The notes under the pieces are model-generated. The model did not search any database. It saw only the letters and a list, made by a program, of their open reading frames with translations, and was not told where the DNA came from. This document shows positions 6,271 to 28,580 of a stretch of DNA of 64,000 nucleotides, piece after piece. Within the stretch, counting starts at the first letter, position 1. The number at the start of each line of letters is the position of its first letter. Source of the stretch: an uncultured Candidatus Saccharibacteria bacterium (GTDB lineage: Bacteria; Patescibacteriota; CAZHWT01). A program made the position numbers and the translations under genes. The DNA lies in contig CAZKPX010000001.1 in assembly GCA_964554805.1 (NCBI GenBank), positions 317,798-381,797 of the forward strand, in the 5' to 3' direction.

Positions 6271-8565
6271 TTGGTTGATTGTATACTGATGGTTATGGGT
6301 GAGCAATTACTTAATAGATCTGGTGAGAATCAAATAGATGATCAGGGCGCGGTGGTTGAGCCTGTTCTTGAAGAGGCTGAGACAGTCGAGCTTGCTGGTG
6401 AAGATGGTATTGAGCCTGGGATAGATGTTGGCGATATGAGTGATTTGGAAAAAGAATATCTGAAGGCGATGTACAAGAAGTATTCTTCCACTGATGAGAT
6501 GGTAGGGCAAGCGATAGAGTTGATGAGTCAGGAGGAGTTGCGAGAAAAGGGCTCTGAGCTGGCGGTTGAGTGGGCTGAGCAGGTGTTGGTTGAGTTGGCG
6601 CCTCAGTATGCAAAGTCCGATTTTGTTCATCCTTCGATGGGCTCGTCTCAGGTGCAGGAAATGATTAAGACGGTATTGGGCGAACGGGTGGGTTTGGATT
6701 ATGATGGTTGGCACAGCGGTGAAAAGGTGCAGGCTATGGTGGGATTTTTGGATGGGTATGTGGATTTTTGTTTGGATACTCTTGAAGCTGCTGATGGAAG
6801 TGAGCGGGAAGCTGTGCGCAAGTCGGTGCTGGTAATGAACAGCCTTGTCTTTGGCGGCAGTCCAAGCTTGGCTAATTGGGCTGGAGGAATTGACGGGATG
6901 GTAAGACTAGCTGCTCGTTGTAATGGACAGCCTGATATGAGAGAGTCGGCTGGTGAGCGCATTGTGGGTGAGGTTGTGTATCAGATAGCTGGAAATAGCC
7001 AGGTTGAGGTTGTAAGTGAGGGATTGGTCGGGTTGCTGGCTGAGAAAAATGGTCTTGAGCGAATTGAGACAATGGAAGTGTTGAGTCAGGTGGCAAGACG
7101 GTCTTTGGGAGAAGGTGGATGGGCTGGTTCGGTGTGGCGGGGAGTGAGAGAACGGCTGCGAGAAATGAGCAGGCAGGAAAAGCCAATGGTGGCGATGTCG
7201 GCTGATGTAGCTTGGGTAGAGGTTGCACAGACGATGATTCGCTATGGATATGTTATCGATCCGGAGGATTTGAAGTTGGTCGAGGAGCTTGAGAGTAGGG
7301 GCTCTTGGGATGAGCAACTAGAGTTTGATGATCGTTTTGGCTCTTGGGTGACTATTGCTCGGGGTTGTAAGGCTCCGGTTGATGATTGGGGTTATATTCA
7401 GGGGATTGTGTGGGAGGGCGATGGCGCACATAGGTTGCGGTTGGAAGAAGTGACTGATGATGAGAGGATTAACCCCTTGGGGGTGTCGATGCCTGGTCGA
7501 GAAGGAGTGTTGTTGCAGCAGCTCCACCGGCCGGAGATGAGGGGGCGGGTTGAGGAGGTGTTGGGTGTGGAATTGAGTGAAGTTTCTTTGGCTTCGCAGA
7601 TTCATCTGTTGCGATTTATGGTTGAGGCTGATCAGGATCAATTGGGTCGTTTAAAGCAGGTGATGGATAGACATGAAGGAGCTAGGATTGGGCTGTTGGA
7701 GTCTTTTTTGGCTTTGGAGATGGGGGATGAGTTTGGGGAGATTTTACTGGAGATTGCTGAGTCGGTGGATGGGGAGCAGTTGGGGATGATTTTGGGCTGT
7801 GTGGCGGATATTCGTGAGTCGATGCGTGTGATTGCGAATCGGTTTGACTTGGGGGGCAGGGGAGATGGGTATGCTAAGGGGATAAATTTGGCCACGGTAA
7901 AGAGGGTGACTGAGGTTTTGAGTGTAATTCCATCTTTGGCTCGTGAGGAAGGAGTGGTAGCTGTGTCGCCGTATATGAGAGGAACTGCTGAGGTGAAAAT
8001 TGGTCAAATTGAGCATCCGATAGCTGTCTTAAAACTGTTGAACAAGGCTCTGCAGTCGATGGCCAGTGATATGCAGGAGGTCCCACAACAGAATTATGTT
8101 GAAAAGTCTGATCCATCTTTGAATCATGTAGTTTTTGAGAGTGGCAACCGAATGACGATTAGGCCACATGCTTCGGAGGTGGGGGAGGCCCGGATGAGCT
8201 TTAGTGTGGCTCTGACCATGGAGGATTTGATTGAGTGTGGCTATGCGTTGGCCGATGATGATATGTTGACGACTCAGGAGAGGAAGCTGACTATTAGGTT
8301 GGATCTGGAGGAGTCGACAGGCCTGTTGTCTCTGGATATGGGGACGATTGAAGTAAAAGATGGGCAAAAGATGAGATTTGTGGACTTGCTGGTTGGTTTG
8401 GTGGTGACAGCAGGGGCGCAAGAGATGGCCCGGCGGAGGGATTTGCCGATAGATGAGGCCAATAATCATGTCCGGGAGGCTTTTGACCCTGATTTGGCTA
8501 ATCCGGCCAGGTATGGTGATTATTTGGAGAATGTAAAATATAGTTTTGCGCCGGTACCTCTTTAA
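6271..8565 (+). CDS. hypothetical acidic protein
   Basis: 764-aa uninterrupted ORF; no recognisable motifs. Confidence 0.5.
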   Translation: MVDCILMVMGEQLLNRSGENQIDDQGAVVEPVLEEAETVELAGEDGIEPGIDVGDMSDLEKEYLKAMYKKYSSTDEMVGQAIELMSQEELREKGSELAVEWAEQVLVELAPQYAKSDFVHPSMGSSQVQEMIKTVLGERVGLDYDGWHSGEKVQAMVGFLDGYVDFCLDTLEAADGSEREAVRKSVLVMNSLVFGGSPSLANWAGGIDGMVRLAARCNGQPDMRESAGERIVGEVVYQIAGNSQVEVVSEGLVGLLAEKNGLERIETMEVLSQVARRSLGEGGWAGSVWRGVRERLREMSRQEKPMVAMSADVAWVEVAQTMIRYGYVIDPEDLKLVEELESRGSWDEQLEFDDRFGSWVTIARGCKAPVDDWGYIQGIVWEGDGAHRLRLEEVTDDERINPLGVSMPGREGVLLQQLHRPEMRGRVEEVLGVELSEVSLASQIHLLRFMVEADQDQLGRLKQVMDRHEGARIGLLESFLALEMGDEFGEILLEIAESVDGEQLGMILGCVADIRESMRVIANRFDLGGRGDGYAKGINLATVKRVTEVLSVIPSLAREEGVVAVSPYMRGTAEVKIGQIEHPIAVLKLLNKALQSMASDMQEVPQQNYVEKSDPSLNHVVFESGNRMTIRPHASEVGEARMSFSVALTMEDLIECGYALADDDMLTTQERKLTIRLDLEESTGLLSLDMGTIEVKDGQKMRFVDLLVGLVVTAGAQEMARRRDLPIDEANNHVREAFDPDLANPARYGDYLENVKYSFAPVPL

Positions 8566-8660: not shown

Positions 8661-9854
8661 ATGTTTGAATACCAAGAATTGTCACAGCACAAGCCTGGAT
8701 ATGACAGTGATGCTCAATTAATATCTAGCGATGTTGAGCTTGATCATACTCGTTATAACTCAGAAGTTGTTGATTCAGCCCGCCAATTAATAGCAGAACA
8801 GATTAATGATCCAGAGCTATCTGTGCAGCTTATGGATCGAGTGGGGGACATAGAGCAGTTTGGTGGCTGGCACGAATACGATGGAAGCACTCTGCTGGTT
8901 CGGACCGCAGAAATTATTCAGCAATGTGACAATATCACAAGACATGACGGTGCCCCAGAAATCGTCAGGAAGGCTGCAGCATCTTTGGTCAAAAGGAGCA
9001 TAGGTTTGGTTGACTCGGCAGCAAAGATTAATGAATTGCTTAAAGATTCAGATAGTAATTCTCCAGAAATTGACTTGCAAGAGATTGCTAGGGTACAGAG
9101 GGATTTTTATTATACAGTTCGCGCAATTAATCTAATACTTCAGTCAGATGAATCTATTGCAAGCGCATATGGCTACAATTCATCAGATTATATGGATCCA
9201 GAAGATTATACCCATTTGACTGCTGCTGTGGACTCTGCGCCTATGCCAGTGAACGAGGGACGGTTCTTTTCTTTTGAGGTTTGCAACCATTCTTATAACC
9301 CAGAAGGTGATTTTATTGATCTTCCGCAGGAAGACTTAAATGATATTGATGAGTTTCAACACAGGGGCAAAATCAAGCTGTTTATTAGAGAGCAAGGTAA
9401 AAATGCCAGAATTTGTTTTACCTATTTGCCTTATCAGGAATCAGCCAGCGCACACTATGAATCTGAGGTTACTCAATGGAGTGAAGGACGACAAGAGACT
9501 GTAAAGCATATTCAGCGCGGATTTAGAATTAGCATTGATCGAGATTCTCTAGGTATGTCTGTCGACGTCGCGCGTGGAGCGTGGGATGGTGTGCAATTTA
9601 AAAGGAAGGCTGATACAGGAGGCAAGGTGTTCGATCATGGCTCAGGAAGCCATGATTACAAAGCGTTCTCTGAAGATGACATCAAAGAATGGCATGACTT
9701 GGTGTTATGGGTTACTAACAGGGCTGCACAAACTACTGAAATAATGCAGACGATATTCCAGCCAGATGTTGAAACTAGCAATAGATCTTCCGGTTTTGAG
9801 GAATATTTATTAGCAACTCTACCTATGGAATATATAAATCGACCACCGAACTAA
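8661..9854 (+). CDS. hypothetical protein
   Basis: 397-aa ORF. Confidence 0.5.
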   Translation: MFEYQELSQHKPGYDSDAQLISSDVELDHTRYNSEVVDSARQLIAEQINDPELSVQLMDRVGDIEQFGGWHEYDGSTLLVRTAEIIQQCDNITRHDGAPEIVRKAAASLVKRSIGLVDSAAKINELLKDSDSNSPEIDLQEIARVQRDFYYTVRAINLILQSDESIASAYGYNSSDYMDPEDYTHLTAAVDSAPMPVNEGRFFSFEVCNHSYNPEGDFIDLPQEDLNDIDEFQHRGKIKLFIREQGKNARICFTYLPYQESASAHYESEVTQWSEGRQETVKHIQRGFRISIDRDSLGMSVDVARGAWDGVQFKRKADTGGKVFDHGSGSHDYKAFSEDDIKEWHDLVLWVTNRAAQTTEIMQTIFQPDVETSNRSSGFEEYLLATLPMEYINRPPN

Positions 9855-10711
9855 GAAGTGGTGTTTTCCCAGATACTATTGAATAGTTGGCGTAAAGTCT
9901 GAGCGATCTCGGGGTTGGTGATAATGGTAGTCACTACGCCCTGACGGTAGGTGCTGAGGGCAATATTGTCGCCGTAGACCATAATTTGGGCTGGAAAGAG
10001 GTGAGTGCCGAAGTGGCGGACAGCTACATTATTGCTGGCCAGCTGCTCTATTTCTTCTGGACTTAGTCTTTCTGCCTCAGAATAGATGGTTCTGACAGCG
10101 ATGCCTGCGGCGATTTGACGGGCGATTTGTTGGTCAATGGCTGTGGCTGACTGAGGATCATCTCGGTCATGGGCGCTAGGGAATATTAATAGTTCTTCTT
10201 TTTGGCGGATAATGTCATCAAATAGGGTGGTTAGGCCTTGAAGGCCCTCTAGATAGAGGACGCCTGGCTGTTCTTGGGTTAGCCTATAGGTGGATAAAAG
10301 TGACGGCAAGAGGCCTTCCAGGCGGTCAGAGCGGTCTTTGAGAGCCTTTTGTTGGCGGAGAATCATTTGCTTGAGGCTGGATGGGCTTTGGGCGGAGTAG
10401 GTGGTTTTGGCGGTGGAGGTATCTTTGGTGACGAGTTGGAGCTGTTCTAGCTGAGATAGGACCTCGTAGGCGTTGGTGCGGGTGATGTTGATGGCGGTGG
10501 CGAGCTGGGGTGGGGTGGTTTGGGGGGCGGTGAGGAGGTGGAGGTAGGTTTGGGCCTGAGAGGGATTGAGGCCGGCTTGGATTAGTTGGTCCAGGGCGGA
10601 GCTGTGCTCGGTTGTTGAGGATTGAGGGCTGGATGGTTTCGGCATGGGGTTTTGGGTTATGGGTGTCTTGGGGTGTATGGGTATTATAGGGTGTTTAATC
10701 AGTGCTGTCAA
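9851..10711 (-). CDS. TrmB-family transcriptional regulator
   Basis: N-terminal wHTH segment GLNPSQAQTYLHLLTAPQTTPPQLATAINITRTNAYEVLSQLEQLQLV matches the TrmB pattern. Confidence 0.6.
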   Translation of the reverse strand: MTALIKHPIIPIHPKTPITQNPMPKPSSPQSSTTEHSSALDQLIQAGLNPSQAQTYLHLLTAPQTTPPQLATAINITRTNAYEVLSQLEQLQLVTKDTSTAKTTYSAQSPSSLKQMILRQQKALKDRSDRLEGLLPSLLSTYRLTQEQPGVLYLEGLQGLTTLFDDIIRQKEELLIFPSAHDRDDPQSATAIDQQIARQIAAGIAVRTIYSEAERLSPEEIEQLASNNVAVRHFGTHLFPAQIMVYGDNIALSTYRQGVVTTIITNPEIAQTLRQLFNSIWENTTS

Positions 10712-11618
10712 TAGTTTTTTGACAAAATATAAATAGAGTTTATCTGAGATAATAGGCTATTAGTCTATATCTCAGTACCCTAGGCTATTGACATAATGCT
10801 AACTATGGGCTATACTGTGTTCAGTTAAATCGATTAGCTCAGTCAGCTGATTGAGTGATTTAACAAGTACCTTTAAGTTTCTTATAAGCTATTAGTAAGG
10901 ATGAAGTACGTCCGCCAGCTGGCGGATCCCTATATGTTTCATTCTGATTAATAGTAGATATGAATAATGGTGATAACCTGGATCGCTTCGGACGACAGGA
11001 AAGCCTAAATCATTCTACTGAGGCACAGGGTCGCTCTGGCCCGGGGAAACCTGGACCAGGGGATCAGTCTTATCTCCGCCATAATCGACGCGAGACGGCC
11101 TGCTGTATCCATTATTTCCATATCAACTGCTCCACGGCAATACACCCTATCTTTCATCTTCTGATGACGAAAGTATTGCTGGTGGAGAAAGGGGACAGGT
11201 GGTCCAAAAGGAATTACTCAATTCCATATAGATTGCCTGTCCTCAAGCGCAAAATTATTATGGTTGGTAGTTGGCAGTTAGTGGTTGGCGGAGAAAGTCT
11301 CTGCTAACGGATTGCTGAAAACTACTAACGCAATCTGGCAATACCAGATTGTTTCAAGCCTTTGTCTGGTCTGCTTAACCTATCTGAGCTAGACTATCTA
11401 ACCCAATGTTATCCTGAATTTGATTCCGGATATGGGTTGAGATCCTAGTCTAATACTCTGGTTGAGCCGACCAAGCAGATGCTTGTCGGCTCTGTTTGTT
11501 GCCACATGATGGGACGGATGGAGTACACAGCTACGCTGTGTGGTTAGCGGTTGGCAGTTAGCTGTTGGCCGAGAACTGCAGGAAACGAAGAGAGACGTAC
11601 CTTTACAAATCAATAATG

Positions 11619-11713
11619 GCTGCAATATTACCCACCTCTCCGTGGTGCAGCTTCCGCCAGTTGGCGGACCAGCCTTTGGCTGGAGATGAATCCGTATTTA
11701 ACGGTAAACCAAG
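11619..11713 (+). repeat. three-hairpin structured element, b/e family copy 1
   Basis: tccgccagttggcgga hairpin, then ccagcc-ttt-ggctgg, then ccgt-attta-acgg, then taaaccaag; a homolog at 15440-15511 carries compensatory changes. Confidence 0.55.
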
Positions 11714-11737
11714 TGGTAATAGTGGAGACTTTTCGGT

Positions 11738-11844
11738 CCCCTTTAGTGGTTAAAGTGTTTTTGCTGGTCTTACGATTGTTCTCTTCGTCATTGCGAGGAG
11801 CGTAGCGACGCGGCAAGCTGTTTTGTATTAACCATTAAATGGGG
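11738..11844 (+). repeat. R3 structured repeat copy 1 (core tcgtcattgcgagRagcgtagcgacgcggcaa)
   Basis: 14-bp closing helix cccctttagtggttaa / ttaaccattaaatgggg; copies at 14329-14431 and 22101-22205. Confidence 0.6.
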
Positions 11845-11928
11845 CTGAAGGGGGAGAGTCAGAGGTCTGAGACTTGTCTCAGTGCTGATTAGCTCTGCAC
11901 CTGGGTTCGATTCCCGGCAGCTCCACAA
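11841..11928 (+). ncRNA. tmRNA-like tRNA-like domain (88 nt), lacking the mRNA-like body
   Basis: 5' ggggctg pairs with 3' cagctcc, including a G3-U70 pair; T-arm ctggg-ttcgatt-cccgg directly before the acceptor 3' strand; the middle is a simple helix plus hairpin with no tag ORF. Confidence 0.35.
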
Positions 11929-13076
11929 AGTACCCCATCGTCTATGGGGGTGGGCAGGCAGGTGCGTCGCGTCTTGCGATAGCCTCGTTTTGTCCTTCAT
12001 CCTCGAAAGGGATGAAAAAATGACTCAGGCACAGGCACAGGCACAGGCTCAGATTGTAAATCGAGCGTTGTCTTTGGTCGGCCAGGTGCCGACCGACCAT
12101 CCGGCTTCGGCTCGGCGAGCAAGGGCTCGGAGAGCCCCTGCTTGGGGCCGCCAGCAACGTGCTGGCGGAAGTCCGCGCTGCCGACAAGACAGCTAAGGCC
12201 ACCCTAACGGGTGGCAAAAAGAAGCGCAAATAGCGGTTCTGCCCGGTGAGTGACCGGGCGGAAATCAAATAGTCACTTCGAGGTGGACGTCTCGTTAACC
12301 GTATTCTGGTGTGGCCGACCACTGCTGTGCGATTTGCGCAGGAGTTAATTGGCTCCAGACTCATTCTGGAGAATCATATGGGGCTGAACCCCCTGGGAGA
12401 TTGAGGGATCTCCCCAGACAAAAATATCCTTCCTCCAGCTCGGAGCTAGGTGCGCAAGGTGTGCATCTGGAAGAGTTACAATTCTGGCCTACGTCCATTC
12501 CACGGATATGGCCTAGCGAAGGAGGGTCTGTTATGACCTAACTCCGCGGTGGTTGGGGCATGCTTCCCCAACCACCAACAACTTATAGACTGCGAGATAG
12601 ATTACCTCCACGTGGTGCAGTCTGGATAGATAATTCGAATAGATTCCTGTCTACACAGGAATGACGGATTGTTGAACTAAGTATCTAAACAGGAGAGTAT
12701 TCTTCTTCTCAATAGCATAATTCATCGGTCATCAGTGCGCGTTGGTTGTGCTGTTGAGGAGTGGAAACACTTCTCCGGTTACAGCATCTTGCGAGGGTTT
12801 ATATTCCCTCGATCTAGCTCTGCTGAGACTGTTCGTCGTTCTGCTCCAAGCCTATCATGGCTGGGTCAGGGGCGATGCATGGTCGGGCCCTCCGATATGG
12901 GTAGCGGTCTGGTTGGGGACTTTTAGTCCCTGACTAGGCCTCCCGCCTATCTGGGTTGGCTAGTCTGCCCTACAGGGGTATTAGCGGTGCAATGCCGCAG
13001 GCTAAAAATACAGACCAGTGTTCTGACTGCCACTGGGGTTCATTGCAGCCTGCAATGGATTAAACTCTGTAGTCGT

Positions 13077-13269
13077 AAATCCGTACCCTCGAACCGTCAG
13101 GAAGCGGTATTCGCCAATCTGGCGAAGTCCCCGGTTCAGCTCCTCGGACTACGATCCCCCAAAATCGTGTCCGAGGAGAACCCCTCGGCAGCATCCGCCA
13201 ACTGGCGGAGATACGCCTCCTCGTGGCGCTGCTGGATAGTCTATTGAAAGATGGATGAACTGAGTATCT
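13077..13269 (+). repeat. R1 structured repeat copy 1 (about 193 nt)
   Basis: aaatccg..ccgtcagga..cgccaatctggcg..variable hairpin..tccgccaactggcgga..agatac..GAAA-loop hairpin..gtatct; about 85% identical to 14117-14310 with compensatory substitutions. Confidence 0.65.
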
Positions 13270-13335
13270 AGGAGAAGTTTTAGCGTAAAGATTACTTCTG
13301 TCCCAATTAAGATTCAAGGTTGCTTGAGTTTTGGT

Positions 13336-13470
13336 TGGGGGAGGAGTGGTATTAAGACGCTACTTCTTTCGACCCCGTACCGCGTAAGCGGATTGAGTGA
13401 TTCTCAATAGCCTTGGTCGCTTGATTAAGGCTTTCCTGGCGGTGCAGACCGCCGCCGCCCATAGGAGGGC
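13336..13470 (+). promoter_or_regulatory. R2 conserved structured leader upstream of the ORF starting at 13474
   Basis: Shared with 20419-20547: G-run closing stem, ccgc-GNRA-gcgg hairpin (gtaa vs gtga), variable hairpin, ggcggt-gcag-accgcc hairpin just before the GGAGG RBS. Confidence 0.5.
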
Positions 13471-13473
13471 GCA

Positions 13474-13968
13474 ATGGCTATCGTGAAGACAAGCGATGTT
13501 GGTATCCGAGTCAATCAACTCTCTCTAGGGATGTGGAGAGAGTTGGGAATAGAGAAGCCTTCCAGGTTTTCTTTATGGGACTACCTGGAAGGCCTCGACA
13601 GGTCCGTCGAGGCCTTGGGCCTCAGGGGAGTGGCAGTAGCCTCAATGAGGTTCCTGCCAGACGCTGCGGTTGTCATCGTATGGGAGCTACGACTCCCGTA
13701 CGATGAAGCTAGGCGGTTCGAAAGTCTATCTGATGGGCAGAAGGAGCGATTCCTTCTGCCCTTAGACAAACCGCTTGAATTCTCGGAAAAGATTGTGAGC
13801 CTCAACACGGAGAGAAACACCCCTCCATGGGAGAGACTCACAATCTCTGGGACGGATTCGTCTCAGTCGTATCTTAGCAGGCCGACAGATCTCTTGCTTC
13901 AGTCGGAGGCGGAGGCTGCAATTGCAGCTTACCGCAGTCGGCTCGAGGAGCTGGTCTCCTCGCTGTAG
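13474..13968 (+). CDS. hypothetical protein
   Basis: 164-aa ORF; GGAGG RBS 5 nt upstream; preceded by the R2 leader. Confidence 0.5.
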   Translation: MAIVKTSDVGIRVNQLSLGMWRELGIEKPSRFSLWDYLEGLDRSVEALGLRGVAVASMRFLPDAAVVIVWELRLPYDEARRFESLSDGQKERFLLPLDKPLEFSEKIVSLNTERNTPPWERLTISGTDSSQSYLSRPTDLLLQSEAEAAIAAYRSRLEELVSSL

Positions 13969-14116
13969 GTTTTTCTAGCGGTCGCGACCGCTTAGCCCGG
14001 GGTTGACCGGGTGATCTCGAAGCCGTTTGCGTAGAGCGGCATCAACTAGTCTTCTCTACGTCCAGCGCACTGCTGCTGGGGTTAATGACAGCCTGTCATT
14101 GACTAGAAGTGCAGAC

Positions 14117-14310
14117 AAATCCGCAAACCTCTGAACCGTCAGGAGCGGTATTCGCCAATCCGGCGAAGTCCCCGGTTCAACTTCCTCAGGTTGCGACTCC
14201 TTGTCGCACCTGAGGGAGATTCCCTCGGCAGCATCCGCCAACTGGCGGAGATACGCCTCCTCGTGGCGCTGCTGGATAGTCTGTCGAAAGACAGATGAAC
14301 TAAGTATCTA
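14117..14310 (+). repeat. R1 structured repeat copy 2
   Basis: Collinear with 13077-13269. Confidence 0.65.
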
Positions 14311-14328
14311 GCATCAGAGACTTTCTGT

Positions 14329-14431
14329 CTCACTTAGTGGTTAACCTGTTTTTGTTGGTCTTACGATTGTTCTTCTCGTCATTGCGAGAAGCGTAGCGAC
14401 GCGGCAATCTAGTGTTTCGACCATTAAGTGA
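14329..14431 (+). repeat. R3 structured repeat copy 2
   Basis: Closing helix ctcacttagtggtt / gaccattaagtgag; the same core as copy 1. Confidence 0.6.
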
Positions 14432-14568
14432 GGGAGAAATCTCTCTGAAGAAAAGAATCAAAACCCTGGGGAAACTCAGGTCTCTGCCCGTCAGCAGAGG
14501 GAGTGAAGTGTAGTGGCCTGGCAGCGTGCCAAAGCCCGTACCGCTTATGCTCCGCATCCTGTGAAAGG

Positions 14569-15250
14569 GATGAACATGAACTGGCAGTTGATTTTTTCAG
14601 TGGCCTTCGTGGCCACTGTGGCGATCGCTATGATTGCCTTCGCCGGCCGAGAAATCGGCGAGGTGAAGGCGGGCGCCGCCGCCGCGGCGCGAAAGGCCGC
14701 GGCTACGGCCGCGGAGGCTACCGCCCAGAAATGGGCGGTGAAGTACCGCAACCTGGAGGTCCTTCGGGACCTCCAGGCTCTCTTCGGAAGCACCCCTGTG
14801 ACGATCTTTGGATCGTCACAGAAGGGGGGCGGTTTCACCGCCCCCGAACGACCGTCCGACCTCGACCTGATGGTCGAGGTTGACGACGAGACCTGGGCGG
14901 AGTGGGCCGCCCAGGTCTACCCGGCAGATCTCGTCGGGGCGGAAGCCCCCCCAGTTTACAACGACAACTGGGGCGGTGGCGAGACCGCTCTGGTTAGGGG
15001 GAGGACAATCACCGTTCTCCCTTACGAGACGGTCTACCCGACGCGCATTGCGCGCCGGGAGGCCGCCCAGGAGATCCTAGGCATCGAGATTGAGCCCCTC
15101 GGGCTCAATCTCGACATCTTCCTCTTCCCGCACTCGTTTGTGCGGGAAGAGATGACCATCCCGGCTTGGGATGGTGCGGAGACCGGAAGGTCTTTCCGGG
15201 AGGAGGTCCTGGCAGGAGTCAAGCTCTCTGAGCTTCAGCCTGCGGACTAA
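14569..15250 (+). CDS. nucleotidyltransferase (Pol-beta/MNT superfamily) with an N-terminal TM helix
   Basis: Motif IFGSSQKGGGFTAPERPSDLDLMVEVDD (GS-x9-SDxDL); N-terminal hydrophobic helix WQLIFSVAFVATVAIAMIAF; Ala-rich linker. Confidence 0.6.
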
Positions 15251-15439
15251 TGACCCTCAGCGCACTGCTGCGCTGGCTGACGACGCATTCGTTGGCGAAA
15301 TGAAGCAGATAGACCTTACCTCGGATCCTTCGCGACTGAGATGGTCGAACCCCGGGGAGCGTAAGCTCTCTGGGGAAACCCATGGCAGCAATTGATTCGC
15401 CTCTACGATGGCTCGCCTAGCCGAAATGCTAGTGCAGGC

Positions 15440-15511
15440 TGGCGCTGCTTCCGCCGGTTGGCGGACTGGTCTTTTGACCAGAGATGAATCCGTCTTGAAC
15501 GGTAAACCAAG
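15440..15511 (+). repeat. three-hairpin structured element, b/e family copy 2
   Basis: tccgccggttggcgga, then ctggtc-tttt-gaccag, then ccgt-cttga-acgg, then taaaccaag. Confidence 0.55.
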
Positions 15512-15661
15512 AATCAAAAATAAACGACATTGATGTCTCCAGGCTACTTGCTGGGGAACAATCAGGGGGCTTTTAACGTTGACCCCTGGTTGTTCCTTGG
15601 GCAGGGAACTAAAGCCAGCCGCGGGTGCGGTAGGCTGAACAATTGCCCTAGAGGAGGCCCT

Positions 15662-16012
15662 ATGGCCACCAAATTCATCAATCTAACCCCTCATACGATC
15701 AATGTTGTTGTTGTTGGGGAGGAGGGTGACGTTGTCGCCTCCTTCCCGGCTTCGGGACAGGAGGCTCGGGTGGCAACCACCCGGGAGCTGTCTCATAACC
15801 TCGACGCCGATGGTGTCGGGATCCCGGTCTTCAGGACCGGGTACGGGGAGATCGAGGGGCTGCCGGCCCCCGAGGCCGGCACTATCTTCGTCGTCTCTGG
15901 TCTGGTGGCTGCGGCCACCGACCGTGATGACGTCGTCTCTCCGGGCGAACTCGTCCGGAACTCCGAGGGGCAGCCGATTGGCTGCCGGGGGTTCTCCCGC
16001 CCCGCTCGATAG
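15662..16012 (+). CDS. hypothetical protein
   Basis: 117 aa from ATG 15662 with a gaggagg RBS; the longer ORF is open from 15530. Confidence 0.45.
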   Translation: MATKFINLTPHTINVVVVGEEGDVVASFPASGQEARVATTRELSHNLDADGVGIPVFRTGYGEIEGLPAPEAGTIFVVSGLVAAATDRDDVVSPGELVRNSEGQPIGCRGFSRPAR

Positions 16013-16209
16013 GGAGAGTTCGGTGGGTGTCCGAACTAAAATAACCACCCCAATTCCAGCCAGTGTGTCTGTGGCTGGGGGTTGGCTGTTGCTTGCAGCT
16101 GACGAAACAAATCTTCGGACATAGGGACCTAACCTGCTGCGGAAGCCTTTGGGTGACTAAGGCAATATCGGTTCCGGCTCCTGGGATGGTGAGATTACTC
16201 ATCGTTCTA

Positions 16210-16303
16210 GGAGACCTTCGTGGCAGCATCCGCCAACTGGCGGAGATACGCCTCCTCGTGGCGCTGCTGGATAGTCTGTTGAAAGATGGATGAACTAAGT
16301 ATC
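16210..16303 (+). repeat. R1 repeat, 3' half only
   Basis: ggcagcatccgccaactggcggagatacgcctcctcgtggcgctgctggatagtctgttgaaagatggatgaactaagtatc. Confidence 0.6.
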
Positions 16304-16658
16304 AGAAGGAAGAGTTTATTTTTGTTCTTAGCCCGTTGCTCTTAGGTGCCTAGTTGACCCTATTGGAAGATAGGGCCAATGGGTTGATTATTTAGCTGAG
16401 AGCAGCGTGGTGGGAATGAAAGAGTTGACGGCTTCTCGGGTGAGGAGCTTTTGGTGTATCTGGGGAGTGAGCAGGTATGCCGGGAGCTCCTCATTGAGGA
16501 GCGCAACCTAGGTGAATTGCAGTAAAAACTCTTTTGGGCAACCCTGCCCGATGCCGTAGGTGCTCTGGATGAAATTGAGCGCTGAATGGAAGTCAGTTAA
16601 AGACTGGCCGAGCAGGGTGGGTATTGTCGCGAGACGCCCCTGGCTCGAAGGAGTTGCT

Positions 16659-19600
16659 GTGAGCAACAATATTCTTCTTCCAATCTCCGCTTATCGGGCG
16701 GAGATTGAAGCAGGGGTGGATGGCGATTCGGTGGTGGTTGTCACCGCTGAAACGGGGACTGGGAAAAGCACGCAAGTGCCGCAGTACATGTTGGAGGCTG
16801 GGTATGATCTGGTAATCACCCAGCCGCGTCGGCTGGCCGCCCGAACAGTGGCCCAGCGAGTGGCCGAGGAAATCGGTCAGGAATTGGGCGGAATTGTTGG
16901 TTATCGGACGGCGGAGGATCGGCGAGATTCGTCGGACACCCGCTGTTTATTCGTGACCGATGGTCTTCAGCTTGTTCGCGAGCTGATGGGTCATGGGAAG
17001 CGGCAAGTTTTGATTCTGGACGAGGTCCATGAATGGAACGAGAACCTGGAAGTTCTCGTTGCCTGGGCCAAGCTCCAGATCGAAACTGGAGCTGATTTCA
17101 AGCTAGTGCTGATGAGCGCTACGCTTGAAGCCGACAAGTTGGCCGCCTATTTTGGTGGTGCGCCAGTTATCTCGGTTCCAGGCCGACTGTTTCCGGTGAC
17201 GGAGCAGAAGCCAGGAGGTTCGGTGGAAGCCGACGTTGCGGAGCTGGTTCGCCAGAGGCGCAATACACTGGTATTCCAGCCGGGCAAGGCGGAGATTGAG
17301 GCCACCTGTGCTGCTTTGCGGCAGATGCAAGTGTGGGCTGAGATTTTGCCTTTGCATGGGCAGTTGACCGCCGAGGAGCAGGCTCGCTGCTTCCGGCATT
17401 ACGGTAAACCCAAGGTGGTGGTGGCATCAAATGTGGCGCAGACCAGCGTCACAATTGACGATATCGACGCCGTTGTCGACTCCGGCATGGAGCGACGGAT
17501 TGAGTTGGTGGATGGGGTTGAGGGCTTGTACCTTAAGCCTATTTCGCTGGCTGATTCTGCGCAGCGCCGGGGTCGAGCTGGTCGGACGAAGGCAGGGATC
17601 TATATCGATCGCTGCCCGAGTGTCGACCGACCGGAGTTTCCGGTGGCCGAGATCCTGCGCAAGCGGCTCGACCAGACGGTACTCCGGTTGGCCAGTGCTG
17701 GGTTTGACATGGAAGAGCTGGAATTCTTCCATCAGCCTGACAAGGCTGACATCCACGAGGCTCGTCAGTCTCTAGTGGCTCTCGGCTGCATGACAGCGGC
17801 TGGAGAAGTCACATCGATGGGGAGACGGGTTAACAAGCTGCCGGTGTCAGTGCAGTATGCGCGGATGCTGGTGGAAGCTGAGCGGTTGGGGGTGGTGGAC
17901 GATCTCCTGACTGTGGCAGCTATCTTGGAGCAGGGCGGTATTACAGTTGCCCCCCCAAGTCGGTCTAATCTGACCCGACCTGATTGGCGCCGAATGGTGC
18001 CGCAGGAGCAGGAGTCGGATATTCTTGGTCAGCTGGTTGTCTATAAAATGGCAGCTGAGATGACCAATGACCAACTCTATCAGAGTGGGGTGGCTCTGAA
18101 GGCCTATTATCGGGCTAAGGAGATCCGCTCTCATTTGGCGAGGGCTCTGGGCGCTCGGTTCCATTCTGGTTCAACGGGTCGCCGCGAGGACATCCTCAAA
18201 GCGGTCTGTGCCGGGATGGTTGACCATCTCTACCATGGCACTGGTGGGGGATGGAAGAATGGTGACGATACTGTCCGAGAACTGGGCAGTTCGTCGCTGG
18301 TTCAGAATGCCAGTTGGTTGGTGGGTCGGCCTTTTGACCTGCAGATCAAGGCACGCTATGGGCATACCACCCTGCGCCTGATCGAGCTGGCGTCAAAGGT
18401 TGAGCCGAACTGGCTGGTCGAAGTCGCTCCGCATTTGGTGGAGCAACAGACTGGCCTGCAACCTCGCTTTGATGACCGGAAGGGGGTGGTGGTTTCGACC
18501 ACCAAGACTCTCTTTAATGGTCAAGAAGTGGGGGAAGAGGAGGTTGTGGATCGGGAGCACCCCGAAGCAGCCGATCTCTTTGCTGGCTGGCTGGCTGGGC
18601 TGAGTCAATCTCGGGCGGAGAGTCTGGGGTTGGAAATTATGGTTCGCAATCTGGCTCGCAACCAACGAGCTAAGGAGCTGAACCAGCGGGCCGGCGAGAC
18701 CCTCTTTGGGGTGGTTGAGCTGCAGGCTTGGTATCTTGCCAAGCTGGAGGGCGCTGGCAACTTTAAGGAGGTGGTGGAGAAGCAGGTGGCTGCGAAGTGC
18801 CTGCTGCCCGATCTCGACCAGGATTTGATTGATCTGGTGCTCCAAGAGCAGCCAGACTCGATTGAGTTGCTGGGCGAAGGCCTGAAAGTAGAGTATGTTG
18901 ATGGCTACGGTCATCGGCGTACTCACCCTAGAGTTCGGTTGTCGGATCAGCAGATTCAGGCGAAGGCCTGGCTTGAGCTGTCTGATGACCAGCCGGTTCG
19001 CCTGTCTGGCGGGCGAATGGTTGAAGTGGCGGTTGAAGTGGCTTATACTACTTTCTCCTCTACTGAGCCATTCCTGCTGAAGGAGCGGGTGCGCGAGTAC
19101 CTGAACCAGAAGCAGTGGGACGCCTGGCATCGACCAGAGGTCTCAGTTGAGGGGCTGGAGTCGGCAGATCAGATTCCGTTTATGACCGCTGTCTATGGAC
19201 AGTGCGTGGTGACGGGGCAGGATCTGCTGGCTTACGGTACCGTTCGGGCACGCCGGTATTGGTCCAGGATTGATCGCTGGCAGCCGGTGTGGGTTCGGTC
19301 TCTTGATGAGGCTGAACGGGTTCGATCCGAGGCAGTGGCAGCACTTGAAGAGGTGCGAGCTGAAGCTGAGGTGAAGGCTATGGAGTCCAGATTGAAGATT
19401 CTGGATGCCCATAACGGCTGGTTCTACCTTGATCGCTCGTCGGAGGCTTATAAGCGCCTTCAGGGCATAATGGTAGAAGTCCCGCCCGCTAGTCGGGAAT
19501 GGTTGATAGAGGCGGGGCGACTGGTTGAAGAGCTGGCTCCTGCCCTTGAGCAGGCCGAGCAAGATGGCTTGGCTGCTGAACAGGCAGCTAAGGCTGAGCA

Positions 19601-20090
19601 ACAGCAGATCGAAGAGAAGGCGGCTGGAATATTGGCTGCGGTCAATCCCAGTGGTCATCACAACTTTGGTTTGGCTGAGGTTCGGTTGGCGAGCCAGTTG
19701 GCCGAACAAGCGGTTCGGCTGGTGGGACAAGCCCGGGCTCAGGCGATCTTCCGAGAGGAAGCGGATGCTTCTTATCGAAGATCGCTCAAATGTCAGCGAA
19801 TCAGAGAGGCTATTCCTGGTTTGTTTGACACGGAAGTTGGGTCGCGGTTCCTCCAGATTCCGGCGCGGTATGTCACCGAATGGTGGTTGCAAGCGACGGC
19901 ATTGTGGTTGGAATCGAATACCACCACGTCGACCGAGGAGTTGCCTGCTCCTGCTCCTGCTCTGATTGAGCTGGAAGAGCAGCCGACGGTGTCAGTTTTG
20001 GCTGTCAAAGAACAGTCTGCCGAGGAGGCAGAAGAGTCTTTTGACAGTCCTATGGCGCTAGCAATGCGTCGGGCCGGGATTAAGTTTTAA
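16659..20090 (+). CDS. DEAH-box (HrpA/HrpB-like) ATP-dependent helicase with a roughly 450-aa C-terminal extension
   Basis: Walker A TGTGKSTQVPQ, DEVHE box, helicase-C and HA2-like region QRRGRAGR; GTG start at 16659 with an aaggag RBS matches the HrpB N-terminus (LPI..); the ORF is open from 16560. Confidence 0.85.
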   Translation: MSNNILLPISAYRAEIEAGVDGDSVVVVTAETGTGKSTQVPQYMLEAGYDLVITQPRRLAARTVAQRVAEEIGQELGGIVGYRTAEDRRDSSDTRCLFVTDGLQLVRELMGHGKRQVLILDEVHEWNENLEVLVAWAKLQIETGADFKLVLMSATLEADKLAAYFGGAPVISVPGRLFPVTEQKPGGSVEADVAELVRQRRNTLVFQPGKAEIEATCAALRQMQVWAEILPLHGQLTAEEQARCFRHYGKPKVVVASNVAQTSVTIDDIDAVVDSGMERRIELVDGVEGLYLKPISLADSAQRRGRAGRTKAGIYIDRCPSVDRPEFPVAEILRKRLDQTVLRLASAGFDMEELEFFHQPDKADIHEARQSLVALGCMTAAGEVTSMGRRVNKLPVSVQYARMLVEAERLGVVDDLLTVAAILEQGGITVAPPSRSNLTRPDWRRMVPQEQESDILGQLVVYKMAAEMTNDQLYQSGVALKAYYRAKEIRSHLARALGARFHSGSTGRREDILKAVCAGMVDHLYHGTGGGWKNGDDTVRELGSSSLVQNASWLVGRPFDLQIKARYGHTTLRLIELASKVEPNWLVEVAPHLVEQQTGLQPRFDDRKGVVVSTTKTLFNGQEVGEEEVVDREHPEAADLFAGWLAGLSQSRAESLGLEIMVRNLARNQRAKELNQRAGETLFGVVELQAWYLAKLEGAGNFKEVVEKQVAAKCLLPDLDQDLIDLVLQEQPDSIELLGEGLKVEYVDGYGHRRTHPRVRLSDQQIQAKAWLELSDDQPVRLSGGRMVEVAVEVAYTTFSSTEPFLLKERVREYLNQKQWDAWHRPEVSVEGLESADQIPFMTAVYGQCVVTGQDLLAYGTVRARRYWSRIDRWQPVWVRSLDEAERVRSEAVAALEEVRAEAEVKAMESRLKILDAHNGWFYLDRSSEAYKRLQGIMVEVPPASREWLIEAGRLVEELAPALEQAEQDGLAAEQAAKAEQQQIEEKAAGILAAVNPSGHHNFGLAEVRLASQLAEQAVRLVGQARAQAIFREEADASYRRSLKCQRIREAIPGLFDTEVGSRFLQIPARYVTEWWLQATALWLESNTTTSTEELPAPAPALIELEEQPTVSVLAVKEQSAEEAEESFDSPMALAMRRAGIKF

Positions 20091-20418
20091 TCTTTGTCGT
20101 GAGGCGGAGGCCTCGTATCAATACTCCAGCGGCTTGTGTTGACCGCTGACTGCCTACAGCGTGTAGGTAGTAAATTCTCAACACATCGGGCCTGTCCGTT
20201 ATTGACGGAGAACGACCCATTGGGTAGGGGGCTAAAACCCCTACCTACTTTACGGCTGCATATACATGCCTCTTCGTGGCGTAGCTAGAAATTCGTTTAT
20301 GTGACGAAGCTAAATGTATGAGAAGTGGAAGAAAGCTTACTTCTGTCTCAATCAGAGCTTGAGACTTTAGGCGTAGATTCCGGATCTAGTCCGGAATGAC
20401 GGCCTTTTGAGCTTTGTT

Positions 20419-20547
20419 TGGGGGGAGAAGTGCTATTAAGACGCTACTTCTTTCGTCCCCGTACCGCGTGAGCGGATTCAGCATCTCAATCCCCGGCCAC
20501 TTGGCTGGGGTTGTTGGCGGTGCAGACCGCCCACGCCTTTGGAGGGC
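20419..20547 (+). promoter_or_regulatory. R2 conserved structured leader copy 2
   Basis: Homolog of 13336-13470, directly upstream of the ORF starting at 20551. Confidence 0.5.
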
Positions 20548-20550
20548 AAA

Positions 20551-20994
20551 ATGATCATCTGCCCCACCATTTACTATTGTCATCCCGGGCAGGAGATACT
20601 TCTGCCTGTGGGGGCGGTCCGTCTGCAAGGGCAGGCGGATGGTTGGTGGGTGGGGGAAGATATCCCTCATCTGCCGTTTGGCCAGAGAAGGGTGAAGGGA
20701 GGGGTCTTCATTGTAGAGGAGGACCTCTCCGATCCCTCGTTCTATGTGGAGGTTGTTATCCTCCACAATGTGAATGAGGGCCTGCCTGGGGCCATCCCCG
20801 CGCTGTTGATTGGGATTGGGGAAGCAGCGCCCCTTGCTGTCCCCAGTAAGAGTGCCTATCGCACTCTGACCGCCGAGGCTACATGTCCTCACTGCGGTTG
20901 TGGTCGCGATTTTAGGCAAAGCTGGGTGGCGGTCGAAGGCTGTTATTTCTGCGATACAGCCATTCGTTCCCCGTTCAGTATGAGCCCAAGCTAG
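20551..20994 (+). CDS. hypothetical protein with a C-terminal Cys4 zinc-ribbon
   Basis: CPHCGCG..x16..CYFCD; GGAGG RBS; the overlapping minus-strand ORF 20386-20919 was rejected. Confidence 0.45.
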   Translation: MIICPTIYYCHPGQEILLPVGAVRLQGQADGWWVGEDIPHLPFGQRRVKGGVFIVEEDLSDPSFYVEVVILHNVNEGLPGAIPALLIGIGEAAPLAVPSKSAYRTLTAEATCPHCGCGRDFRQSWVAVEGCYFCDTAIRSPFSMSPS

Positions 20995-21300
20995 ACTGAA
21001 CCCCGGAGAGCTGGAGGCTCTCTGGGGAACCCAATGGCAGTATCCCCAACTGGCGGAGATACGCCTCCACGTGGCGCTGCTGGAATAGTGCTTATTGTCA
21101 GGCTGAACTAAATTCTGCAGAATAAATCTGCGAATAAATCCAAACAGGATGACATTGAGTATTAACTGAGTATCTGAGGGAGAGTTTTTTCTGTCCGCTT
21201 TAGTTTTTTGATTATGAAAATTGATGCTATGGGTACGTTGTTGCTCGGTGTCGATGGTGAGTTAAAAGATTGAAGCGGGGAGATGAATGATGGAGGCTGG

Positions 21301-21478
21301 GTTATGGCAGTGTGCTGTGGCGGCTTCTGTCGGGTATATTTGACATAAGCTGGGCTTGTGACTAGGAACCCGTTTCTGAAATTTGTCTGTGGCCTTGAGG
21401 AAGATAGGGCTGAGGGGTTATAGTGCGGTTGATGTTTTTTAACGGTTAGCCGCTATTTCGGAGACGGGTTTTTGGTAA
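21301..21478 (+). repeat. R4 direct repeat, left copy (about 178 nt)
   Basis: About 93% identical to 22267-22440. Confidence 0.7.
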
Positions 21479-21597
21479 GTAGGGGGGATTGCCGGTCCGC
21501 TTGAGGCTTTTGGGTAATGAAGCTTGAAGTGGGGTGGTATGTGAGGGCAGGGAAAGATTCTCTGCTTGGGACCTCCCAATTAGAAAGGAGGGGTGCA

Positions 21598-21789
21598 ATG
21601 CACCCAGTCTTTTTCTTGCTAGCAATAGCGGCCACGCTGGCCGCTATTGGAGCAGTCGCTTGGCTGCTCTTCGGCTTCCATCAGGACACTCGGAAGGCGC
21701 TCGAGGTCTCCGTTGAGACCCGGGTTGCCATTGCGGCGATCCTGATCGGCACGGCCGCGATTGGCTGGTGCCTGGCGGTATCGGTTTAG
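21598..21789 (+). CDS. small two-TM membrane protein (63 aa)
   Basis: MHPVFFLLAIAATLAAIGAVAWLLFG..AIAAILIGTAAIGWCLAV; followed by a perfect hairpin cgaggaaggagg..ccttccttcctcg. Confidence 0.35.
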   Translation: MHPVFFLLAIAATLAAIGAVAWLLFGFHQDTRKALEVSVETRVAIAAILIGTAAIGWCLAVSV

Positions 21790-22007
21790 CGTGGTGGTCG
21801 AGAAAACCCGCGAGGAAGGAGGTTATTACCTTCCTTCCTCGGGGGAATACATTTTATATTGGAGAAGGAGTTGGTTTTGTAAGTGAGAAGAAAGAAGAGA
21901 GATCTTGTGGAGCAACAGGCGACAAGCGACCCCGATAGATCGGGGCAGGCTCGGCGACGAGACCTGGATTTGCGAAGCAAGCAACAGTGAACCTTAATAA
22001 TCAAATA

Positions 22008-22085
22008 ATGGCTGCAATATTACCCATCTCTCCGTGGTGCAGTCTGGATAGTCTGTTGAAAGACGGATGAACTGAGTATCTGACA
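22008..22085 (+). repeat. R1-variant repeat (ggctgcaatattaccca..ccgtggtgcag..ctggatagtctgttgaaagacggatgaactgagtatct)
   Basis: Shares its 5' module with 11619-11650 and its 3' module with R1. Confidence 0.55.
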
Positions 22086-22100
22086 TCAGAGACTTTCTGT

Positions 22101-22205
22101 CTCGCTTAGTGGTTGAGCTAGTTGACGCTTGTTTATGATTGTTCTTCTTGTCATTGCGAGAAGCGTAGCGACGCGGCAATCTAGTCTATTTGACCACTGA
22201 GTGAG
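22101..22205 (+). repeat. R3 structured repeat copy 3
   Basis: Closing helix ctcgcttagtggtt / gaccactgagtgag, with G-U and A-U substitutions relative to copy 2. Confidence 0.6.
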
Positions 22206-24637: not shown

Positions 24638-25180
24638 TTGAAAATGGTTGTCTATGCTATTTACAATCAGAAGCATGATAAGATTTATATCGGTCAGACC
24701 GAAGATCTTGATTTGCGTCTCGACCTGCACAATAGTAAAGACTTCATTAAAAGCTACACTGCACGATTTGATGGCGTATGGAAGTTAATTTACCAAGAAG
24801 CAGTTGGTAATCGAGTAGAAGCTCTAACTCGCGAAAAGCAGCTTAAATCTTATCGCGGCAGACAATTCATAAAATCTTATATTCCTCGGTATCCGCCAGC
24901 TGGCGGGAGGAAGCTGCCACTCATAACAATGTGGTATGTCTACTGCCTATATAATTATGATAATGATAAGATTTATATTGGTTATACGGGCGATTTTGAC
25001 AGGCGCATTATTGAACACAATCTCAAGAAAGATAAAAGTTCGTATACTGCAAGGTTCGACGGTGAGTGGGTTTTGATTTATAAGGAAGAAGTCTCCAACA
25101 AATCAGAAGCTGCAAAACGTGAAAAGTCTTTAAAGTCGTTCAGGGGGCGTGAGTATTTACAATCTTATATTCCTCGGTAG
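24638..25180 (+). CDS. tandem double GIY-YIG nuclease (two YhbQ/UPF0213-like modules fused in one ORF)
   Basis: Module 1 VYAIYNQKHDKIYIGQTEDLDLRLDLHNS..SYTARFDGVWKLIY; module 2 VYCLYNYDNDKIYIGYTGDFDRRIIEHN..SYTARFDGEWVLIY; each ends ..SYIPR encoded by aatcttatattcctcggta; the stop codon overlaps the tRNA-Asn 5' end. Confidence 0.7.
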   Translation: MKMVVYAIYNQKHDKIYIGQTEDLDLRLDLHNSKDFIKSYTARFDGVWKLIYQEAVGNRVEALTREKQLKSYRGRQFIKSYIPRYPPAGGRKLPLITMWYVYCLYNYDNDKIYIGYTGDFDRRIIEHNLKKDKSSYTARFDGEWVLIYKEEVSNKSEAAKREKSLKSFRGREYLQSYIPR

Positions 25181-25245
25181 CTCAATGGCAGAGCAGGAAG
25201 CTGTTAACTTCAAGGTTGTTGGTTCGAATCCAGCCCGAGGAGCCA
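25171..25245 (+). tRNA. tRNA-Asn (anticodon GTT)
   Basis: Acceptor tcctcgg/ccgagga; D-stem gctc/gagc; anticodon loop ctGTTaa; T-arm gttgg-ttcgaat-ccagc; gCCA encoded. Confidence 0.85.
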
Positions 25246-28238: not shown

Positions 28239-28580
28239 GTGAAGGAAGAGATGATGGCCGAAGCTCTCGATAAATTGGAGCGGCAAGTGGCCCCTCAGCA
28301 TCGAACAGCTTTTTCAGATGTCCGTACGCTAATCATGCATACTCAAGGTAAACTAGACTGGTTGCCTGAGTTGGCAGAAATGCATGGTCTGGCTTTAGAG
28401 ATAGTGGAGGAACTGAAAAAGCACCTGCAGTCGGAGATAGAAGCCTTGAACCAGCTTCCTCCGGATGCACCGCTGGCACATCTGATGCCGGAGCATCTTG
28501 AGCAGGCGCGTCAATTCCGGGAGCGTTTCCTGGAAAACTCACCCTATCATCAGGAAAGATTGCGTCAGGGCATCCCATAA
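28239..28580 (+). CDS. hypothetical protein
   Basis: 113-aa ORF. Confidence 0.35.
   Translation: MKEEMMAEALDKLERQVAPQHRTAFSDVRTLIMHTQGKLDWLPELAEMHGLALEIVEELKKHLQSEIEALNQLPPDAPLAHLMPEHLEQARQFRERFLENSPYHQERLRQGIP

Follow-up and report, generated by a model that had tools for sequence, protein, structure and literature searches.

A tmRNA-like element reduced to its tRNA-like domain, set among candidate HDV-like ribozymes in a bacterial chromosome

The 64,000-nt stretch of DNA analyzed here (contig CAZKPX010000001.1, positions 317,798 to 381,797 of the forward strand; hereafter the window) is bacterial chromosome, with dnaG, rpoD, ftsH, polA, fpg and a sortase gene. Between the genes for a TrmB-like regulator and an HrpA-like helicase lies a short sequence with the ends of a transfer-messenger RNA (tmRNA, the ssrA product), which a first-pass annotation had described as the tRNA-like domain (TLD) of a tmRNA without the mRNA-like domain. 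The parts of this element and its 3' flank are listed below, where PK is a pseudoknot, ORF an open reading frame and MFE minimum free energy.

11841-11925, + strand: TLD-only tmRNA-like element, 85 nt to the discriminator A and followed by CAA, not CCA; found with the Rfam tmRNA model and with model R2 (see below)
11841-11847, + strand: 5' strand of the acceptor stem, GGGGCUG, base-paired in the constrained fold as well as in the MFE fold; position -1 is a U
11851-11896, + strand: central irregular hairpin, P2-like, with a CUGAGA-CUUG-UCUCAG cap, from the constrained fold; it replaces PK1, the tag ORF and PK2-4
11901-11917, + strand: T arm, CUGGG-UUCGAUU-CCCGG, including a single U·G pair; the two bases before it are AC, a feature shared with most of the family described below
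11918-11925, + strand: 3' strand of the acceptor stem, CAGCUCC, and the discriminator A, read directly
11933-11949, + strand: trailer hairpin, CCCCAU-CGUCU-AUGGGG, 7 nt past the discriminator and without a U tract; the scan gave the same stem on the opposite strand

The strands at 11841-11847 and 11918-11924 form a 7-bp acceptor stem without a mismatch, whose third pair is G3·U70 and which is followed by discriminator A73. Counting the 5-bp T stem with its loop UUCGAUU, there are 0 mismatches in the 12 acceptor and T pairs, so the tmRNA-type termini and the G3·U70 pair that had been claimed for this site are borne out. The 53 nt between the termini make up one irregular hairpin (46 nt, closed). 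They hold no mRNA-like domain (resume codon, tag ORF and stop codon), and in the folds of the element this single hairpin appears in place of pseudoknots PK1-PK4 and the long P2 that links the domains. The description as a TLD without an mRNA-like domain therefore stands. The proposed size of 88 nt holds if three bases past the discriminator are counted, but these are CAA rather than CCA, and the element measures 85 nt to its discriminator. When the acceptor stem and T arm are imposed as a constraint, the predicted folding energy is -35.9 kcal/mol, as against -36.0 for the unconstrained MFE fold.

The Rfam tmRNA model RF00023 matches the element at 42.8 bits (E 1e-13 in the 64-kb window). The alignment runs end to end over 11841-11928 and model positions 1-374, with an internal deletion of 280 positions. 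Since the gathering cut-off of this model is 47 bits, the match becomes visible with E-value reporting; at gathering thresholds Rfam returns six tRNAs only from the window. ARAGORN likewise finds six tRNAs in the window and calls no tmRNA, tRNA or tag peptide at the element, which also lacks the cloverleaf of RF00005 with its D arm and anticodon arm. Where other models of the same Rfam clan also matched, the tmRNA model won the competition with the higher score. A second model, R2, was built from short TLD elements and the TLD-only tmRNA of mycobacteriophage DS6A with the window left out, and scores the element at 56 bits (E 1e-10). This is its best match in the window, the runner-up being a real tRNA-Met gene at 25.8 bits. 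The likeness to tmRNA is much too strong to be accidental. The 22-mer at the 3' end of the element, GGTTCGATTCCCGGCAGCTCCA, occurs once in the window (0 expected) and is identical to tmRNA 3' ends or matching attachment sequences in 32 viral-contig stretches; by blastn the element matches the 3' ends of mycobacteriophage tmRNAs. All six tRNA genes of the window encode their CCA, whereas the element does not.

Two further possibilities at the site were considered and set aside. A permuted or two-piece tmRNA (RF04321) scores 24.6 bits against a cut-off of 47, a match explained by the T arm and acceptor stem; there is no tag ORF, ARAGORN is negative, and the downstream GGGGGUG, in the place of the 5' GGGG strand expected of the coding piece, carries a mismatch. 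A second GGGGCTGAA is indeed present downstream, starting at 12380 and not at 12378 as had been reported, but it is not a second copy of the TLD: it lacks a T arm and has no model match, and the 9-mer occurs at chance level (3 occurrences in the window versus 1.07 expected, with 16 of 100 shuffles reaching 3).

We then asked whether short TLDs of this kind occur elsewhere. The search pattern, GGGGCTGA-N35-65-GGTTCGANTCCNNGCAGCTCCA, was taken from the window element and matched 24 viral-contig stretches and 95 GTDB genome stretches. About 85 of the GTDB matches are actinobacterial and were discarded as short TLDs, since they represent the final ~87 nt of full-length tmRNAs with GGGGCUGAGAAA in PK4; in the four of these loci that were tested ARAGORN calls tmRNAs of 366-371 nt, with smpB adjacent. 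What remains is a set of 22 distinct TLD-only sequences of 68-95 nt (window copy excluded, two metagenome matches included), from viral contigs and from contigs of metagenome-assembled genomes (MAGs) assigned to Chloroflexota, Cyanobacteria, Patescibacteria, Saccharibacteria and Lysinibacter. Their common fold has a short 5' linker, one hairpin (often with a small inner hairpin), a short junction ending in AC, and the T arm. The two T-stem pairs that the pattern left free covary: all 22 sequences keep them paired, using as many as four pair types. Seven members exceed the Rfam tmRNA cut-off, with matches of ~80 nt and 54-69 bits, and most members lack an encoded CCA. Judged by sequence and predicted fold, the window element belongs in kind to this covarying TLD-only family, as a divergent variant.

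Several family members keep company with tRNA genes. Phage tRNA arrays hold or adjoin the elements of L041 (18 tRNAs), L126 (17) and L157 (8), and in L059 the element directly follows a tRNA-Met gene. The upstream flank in L078 suggests a tRNA 3' end before the element, where ARAGORN called no tRNA. At another locus (L038, 7371-7673, - strand) ARAGORN stretches a 75-nt TLD-only element with an encoded CCA into a 303-nt 'tmRNA' with the implausible repetitive tag VPIMGLIVPIMGLIVPIIGAELA. Rfam matches only its last 78 nt, at 61.3 bits, and the call is probably an over-extension across upstream repeats. No smpB gene was found in the window or at any of the short-TLD loci.

The surroundings of the window element are built of repeated leader modules, each line below giving one module or ribozyme candidate of the segment (HDV, hepatitis delta virus).

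11618-11698, + strand: HDV-like ribozyme candidate rz11, with a partial match to the Rfam HDV-F-prausnitzii model, the L3 motif and the helices (P2 AAUAU/GUAUU read by eye); upstream bound of the TLD unit
11725-11844, + strand: leader module 'd', the R3 repeat of the first-pass annotation, with further copies at 14317-14433 and 22089-22182; the TLD element directly follows this first copy
12588-12686, + strand: candidate rz12, with the L3 motif and 6/6 P1, 5/5 P2 and 3/3 P3 pairs; downstream bound of the TLD unit
13187-13268, + strand: candidate rz13, with the L3 motif and helices
14227-14308, + strand: candidate rz14, with the L3 motif and helices
16222-16303, + strand: candidate rz16, with the L3 motif and helices
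20254-20319, + strand: candidate rz20, with the L3 motif and helices; 35.1 bits with Rfam HDV-F-prausnitzii, cut-off 44
21036-21116, + strand: candidate rz21, with the L3 motif and no P2
22010-22079, + strand: candidate rz22, with the L3 motif and helices

The P3/L3 motif CTCYHCGTGG has eight matches in the window, where 0.5 are expected, and all lie on the + strand within 11636-22037. A script check shows full pairing of P1, P2 and P3 in six of the eight candidates. Two of these helices vary by compensatory changes, P1 as GGCUGC/GCAGUC, GACUGC/GCAGUC and GGCAGC/GCUGCU, and P2 as GAUAC/GUAUC, AGAUA/UAUCU and AUACAU/AUGUAU. The hallmarks of the HDV fold are found, namely the nested double pseudoknot of P1, P2, P3 and P4, the L3 sequence UCNNCGU and a C in J4/2. 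Three copies escape Rfam because a 16-nt hairpin is inserted in J1/2. We therefore take the repeated leader modules to be HDV-like ribozymes, with self-cleavage predicted from these features. The eight candidates fall within 10.5 kb, where almost every ORF has one upstream and where rz13 to rz22 each precede a + strand ORF; the remnant of a further ribozyme lies at 15440-15511. We also considered whether the trailer is an HDV or theta ribozyme placed immediately 3' of the TLD, in the manner of gut phages (PMC10879173), and rejected this: on visual inspection it folds differently, and 660 nt separate the TLD from the nearest ribozyme downstream.

The R3 repeat is real: its three copies align up to 11844 and so overlap the first 4 nt of the element, as had been claimed. 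The other two copies run on into GUGAGGGAGAAAUCUCUCUGAAGA in place of the TLD, and the slot that the TLD fills is taken in the two paralogous leaders by an unrelated module of ~110 nt ('e'). After the element comes the trailer hairpin, and likeness to the second leader unit then resumes at a Shine-Dalgarno-like AAGGGAUG and start codon; the third unit has no significant similarity in this region past the TLD. The second unit is not a decayed TLD unit, for units 1 and 2 are alike in the final hairpin and Shine-Dalgarno region only. The core of R3, CATTGCGAGRAGCGTAGCGACGCGGCAA (11789-11816, 14380-14407 and 22152-22179 in the window), is also present in three viral contigs (L035, L036 and L037), where its flanks share nothing with the window; the L035 copy forms an arm of a long palindrome. 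R3 was accordingly dismissed as a specific partner of the TLD, its core being a short motif that occurs in those contigs with unrelated flanks. R3 followed by GGGGCTGA was not found in JGI metagenomes.

On a larger scale the segment belongs to a gene module whose ends are formed by two protein-coding genes.

9851-10711, - strand: TrmB-like regulator (Pfam TrmB, 7.9e-10), left end of the conserved module
16560-20090, + strand: HrpA-like DEAH helicase (Pfam DEAD/Helicase_C), right part of the conserved module

The helicase has 4477 homologues, the best of which share 55-73% identity and carry the names Kaiserbacteria, Nomurabacteria or Patescibacteria, so the host is probably a bacterium of the candidate phyla radiation (CPR). 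A TrmB-like gene on the - strand and a helicase gene on the + strand lie a few kb apart in four relatives (L194, L196, L199 and JGI 3300072015), in different neighborhoods; in GCA_964492265.1 the module sits between secY and adk. The inner genes vary and include Csx3, ParE/YoeB and a member of a family sometimes fused to CARF. The pair looks like a mobile or defense-type module of CPR bacteria. No relative of the 397-aa protein encoded upstream of the TrmB-like gene turned up among 5.8 billion sequences. ORF 15530-16012 matches the CRISPR-accessory family 'sometimes fused to CARF' (Unk_01, 4e-22) and has 33 relatives in viral contigs. A link of the TLD to the phage-type 115-aa protein was tried and rejected, since 0 of the 33 viral loci encoding it carries a short TLD. 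As for carriage by a phage or mobile element, the module occurs in varied neighborhoods and includes one phage- and CARF-associated gene; no phage structural genes were seen, and there is no integrase domain among the eight ORFs of the segment that were tested. The 12-22 kb segment, built of the repeated leader modules, has a GC content of 0.53-0.59 against about 0.47.

Some observations stand apart from the element itself. The corresponding TrmB-helicase module of GCA_964492265.1 (L196) holds two near-identical matches to type III hammerhead ribozymes (7707-7789 and 14676-14758; 32.5 and 27.9 bits, cut-off 48.5) with intact CUGAUGAG...CGAAA cores, and the module seems to draw different self-cleaving ribozymes in different genomes. 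ORF 14573-15250 (+ strand) begins with a hydrophobic helix and contains GSSQKGGGFTAPERPSDLDLMVEV, a motif that looks on inspection like a minimal nucleotidyltransferase signature; it has no Pfam or PHROG match and only a weak PADLOC match (E 0.003). The + strand of the window shows a strong bias of G over C, with a GC skew of 0.2-0.5 in most 2-kb bins and 0.04-0.2 at 12-22 kb. A tRNA-Ile with anticodon UAU is called by ARAGORN at 48800-48876 (- strand; Rfam 70 bits), while in most bacteria AUA is read by a lysidine-modified CAU tRNA. An ORF with a GIY-YIG nuclease domain (24638-25180, + strand; Pfam 1e-29) ends inside the start of tRNA-Asn (25171-25245) and may be a homing-endonuclease-like insertion beside a tRNA.

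What might such an element do? We tentatively favor an accessory RNA that is processed like a tRNA, is probably alanylated, and competes with the resident tmRNA as a decoy in trans-translation. The RNA would be co-transcribed with the unit bounded by rz11 and rz12. RNase P would cut 5' of G11841 (11840/11841), where the -1 base is U, and an RNase Z-type cut after A11925 would be followed by CCA addition. The same route, a cut and then addition of CCA, is known for the CCA-less tRNAs of phage T4 in E. coli. Alanyl-tRNA synthetase (AlaRS) would charge the product by way of G3·U70. Lacking a resume codon, a tag ORF and a stop codon, the RNA could not complete trans-translation; it may instead compete with the tmRNA of the cell for AlaRS, EF-Tu, SmpB or stalled ribosomes and so damp or divert rescue. 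The decoy role is suggested by the missing tag ORF together with the effect reported for an engineered TLD-only molecule: an RNA of this type strongly inhibits tmRNA, perhaps by titrating SmpB, according to Hudson, Lau & Williams 2014 (PMC4131195, citing Mao 2009). The lack of an encoded CCA, a trait of most family members but of none of the six host tRNA genes, fits a foreign or accessory origin. Among the three options that the first-pass annotation had offered, a minimal alanine-accepting tRNA-like RNA fits best, with its 12 pairs, T loop, G3·U70 and A73 intact.

Several points weigh against this reading, the main weakness of which is that the motifs for contact with SmpB are absent from the element. 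In canonical TLDs a D-loop analogue, GGnnUCGAC, and a 3' GGAC contact SmpB. Most family members retain these motifs. The element has neither, showing an AAGGGGG linker and a GCAC 3' junction at these places, and its binding by SmpB is therefore doubtful. Its T stem contains one U·G pair at a position that is Watson-Crick paired in every one of the 22 other family members, its folding z-score relative to shuffled sequences is only -1.4, and its Rfam score stays under the gathering cut-off (42.8 versus 47 bits). No promoter was identified for it, the sole promoter-like site overlapping rz11. The invariance of the acceptor and T-loop positions across the family is partly circular, because the search pattern came from the window element. 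Searches of the viral, GTDB, JGI and isolated-phage collections returned no close homologue of the element, which leaves the central hairpin without support from covariation, and no short TLD is present in the three syntenic relatives whose DNA could be read.

Many of these same facts would suit a non-functional relic still awaiting decay, whether it began as a captured TLD-only gene or as an ssrA copy with an internal deletion. The absence from syntenic relatives and from the collections searched, the sub-threshold score, the U·G pair and the missing D-loop analogue all point this way, as do CAA for CCA beside six host tRNA genes that encode it and the decay and mosaicism of the neighbors, seen in rz21 without P2 and in the remnant at 15440-15511. 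We rate a relic somewhat below the decoy reading, as a serious contender. All 12 stem pairs, the T loop and the identity elements are intact, the center forms a neatly closed hairpin that ends in a stable CUUG and does not look like a ragged deletion, and CCA is missing from most family members as well. The clean, closed architecture also makes the collapsed ssrA pseudogene that had been proposed less probable. Finding a canonical ssrA elsewhere in the genome would not alone make the element a relic, since the TLD-only gene of DS6A is an accessory copy in a phage whose mycobacterial host has its own tmRNA. A role in cis, which we regard as rather unlikely but still a live alternative, would have the minihelix kept as an RNase P (and RNase Z) site between the ribozyme-leader RNA and the mRNA of the small ORF, acting like tRNA punctuation or like MALAT1-mascRNA, while the tmRNA-like sequence merely records its origin. 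This would agree with a segment organized around RNA cleavage, with eight HDV-like candidates each upstream of an ORF, and with the way the TLD fills the slot of module 'e' before likeness to the second unit resumes; the U at -1 is also in its favor, and RNase P is indifferent to the missing SmpB contacts. RNase P, however, needs no G3·U70, no A73 and no exact tmRNA-type acceptor, all of which are intact, and the other units manage with ribozymes alone.

Two readings carry little weight. That the element is the organism's sole tmRNA, in a CPR lineage whose rescue would rely on a tag-less TLD like that of jakobid mitochondria, agrees with the absence of a canonical tmRNA from the window and with the short TLDs in Patescibacteria and Saccharibacteria MAG contigs, two of which score above the Rfam cut-off at 69 bits. 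We hold it to be very improbable: the 64-kb window is only part of a contig at least 447 kb long, the TLD is missing from the syntenic relatives read, it lies in a variable module and not beside smpB, the SmpB-contact motifs are missing, and tmRNA is near-universal in bacteria (PMC4131195). The att-site relic raised in the first-pass annotation, here the remnant of an element integrated into ssrA, is largely refuted and the hardest to credit. Its appeal lies in the 3' 22-25 nt, identical to tmRNA 3' ends and to unannotated mycobacteriophage sites that are probably attP cores, and in a compositionally distinct segment with direct repeats at its flanks. Such a remnant would keep only the 3' part, whereas here a perfect 5' strand 70 nt upstream closes the tRNA-like fold. 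No full-length ssrA lies in the window, none of the eight segment ORFs tested has an integrase domain, and the flanking repeats are ribozyme and leader modules, not ssrA fragments.

If the decoy reading is followed further, the short TLD could be a working part of an RNA-centered conflict module in a CPR bacterium, together with the TrmB/Csa3-like regulator, Unk_01, the HrpA-like helicase and the eight HDV-like ribozymes, which would cut up the transcript. We consider this improbable and offer it as speculation. Were it true, an alanyl-accepting mimic of tmRNA would be released on demand and would halt ribosome rescue or turn it to other ends, working either as an abortive-infection-like switch or as a decoy against defense. 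More broadly, tag-less look-alikes of tmRNA had a single prior mention, in phage DS6A, and have barely been studied; they now appear as recurrent in phage contigs and small-genome bacteria, and the window copy is a TLD-only variant of distinct structure, carried by a cellular chromosome. Should RNAs of this kind be aminoacylated and pass into stalled ribosomes, or should they sequester SmpB, EF-Tu or AlaRS, nature would have in them a means of tuning or sabotaging ribosome rescue, which is an antibiotic target. The ribozyme-dense setting is more surprising than the TLD element itself, and eight HDV-like candidates in 10.5 kb would be an uncommonly clear example, in a natural bacterium, of gene expression punctuated by ribozymes.

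Compared with canonical ssrA (RF00023), the acceptor stem and T arm of the window element are nearly perfect to consensus, including the alanine identity pair. In contrast, it is 85 nt long where ssrA RNA is ~350, and it has no resume codon, tag ORF, pseudoknots or SmpB-contact D-loop analogue. It is not a canonical tmRNA, failing on the tag ORF, the pseudoknots and the Rfam cut-off alike. The tmRNA of jakobid mitochondria (mt-tmRNA in Rfam) reportedly lacks an mRNA-like domain, and so offers a parallel in a natural tmRNA reduced to its tRNA-like domain; it is the sole tmRNA of its organelle and is served by an imported SmpB, whereas the window element probably represents an additional copy, located within a variable module. 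A eukaryotic analogy is MALAT1 mascRNA, a tRNA-like RNase P processing signal. There, as could be the case here, a tRNA-like acceptor and T module inside a longer transcript sets RNA ends, but the two are unrelated in sequence and the Rfam mascRNA model gives only 18.8 bits (E 2).

Nearer relatives are the TLD-only elements of IMG/VR viral contigs and MAGs (L022-L060, L062, L078, L085, L111, L126, L137 and L156), which share the layout and length of the window element. Likeness in sequence is limited to the acceptor stem and T arm, and many of these elements are found within phage tRNA arrays or carry a terminator of their own, neither of which holds for the window element. The nearest look-alike in layout is the 85-nt element of a Chloroflexota MAG (L062), whose A(C)AGGG linker is likewise short and whose single hairpin is likewise long; unlike the window element it has its own terminator.

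The closest described system is mycobacteriophage DS6A, whose tmRNA was listed as 'TLD only' (Hudson, Lau & Williams 2014, PMC4131195). We located this element at 28478-28557 of JN698994.1 (JN698994; L192), in the gap between gp33 and gp34, where it is unannotated in the GenBank record; DS6A also encodes an RtcB-like RNA ligase (gp76). The window element has the DS6A-type layout, an acceptor stem with G3·U70 and A73, a T arm and a closed hairpin within ~70-95 nt and no tag ORF. The two agree in a length of ~80 nt and in having one closed P2-like hairpin and no encoded CCA; the window element may also, like that of DS6A, be an accessory copy on non-core DNA. They differ in their contact motifs and loops: DS6A and the elements most like it (L045, L085 and L111) have the loop GAAAACCGCACGCGGUAC in common and keep the D-loop analogue AAUGGUGGUCGAC and a 3' GGC/GGAC, none of which the window element has. 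It is without the AAAACCGCAnGCGG loop; the conserved loop of the DS6A subgroup, AAA(A/G)CCGCAnGCGG, is missing from it and from L062 and the L042-L056 group too. Finally, DS6A carries its TLD in a phage genome, whereas the window element resides in a probable CPR bacterium and sits among HDV-like ribozymes.

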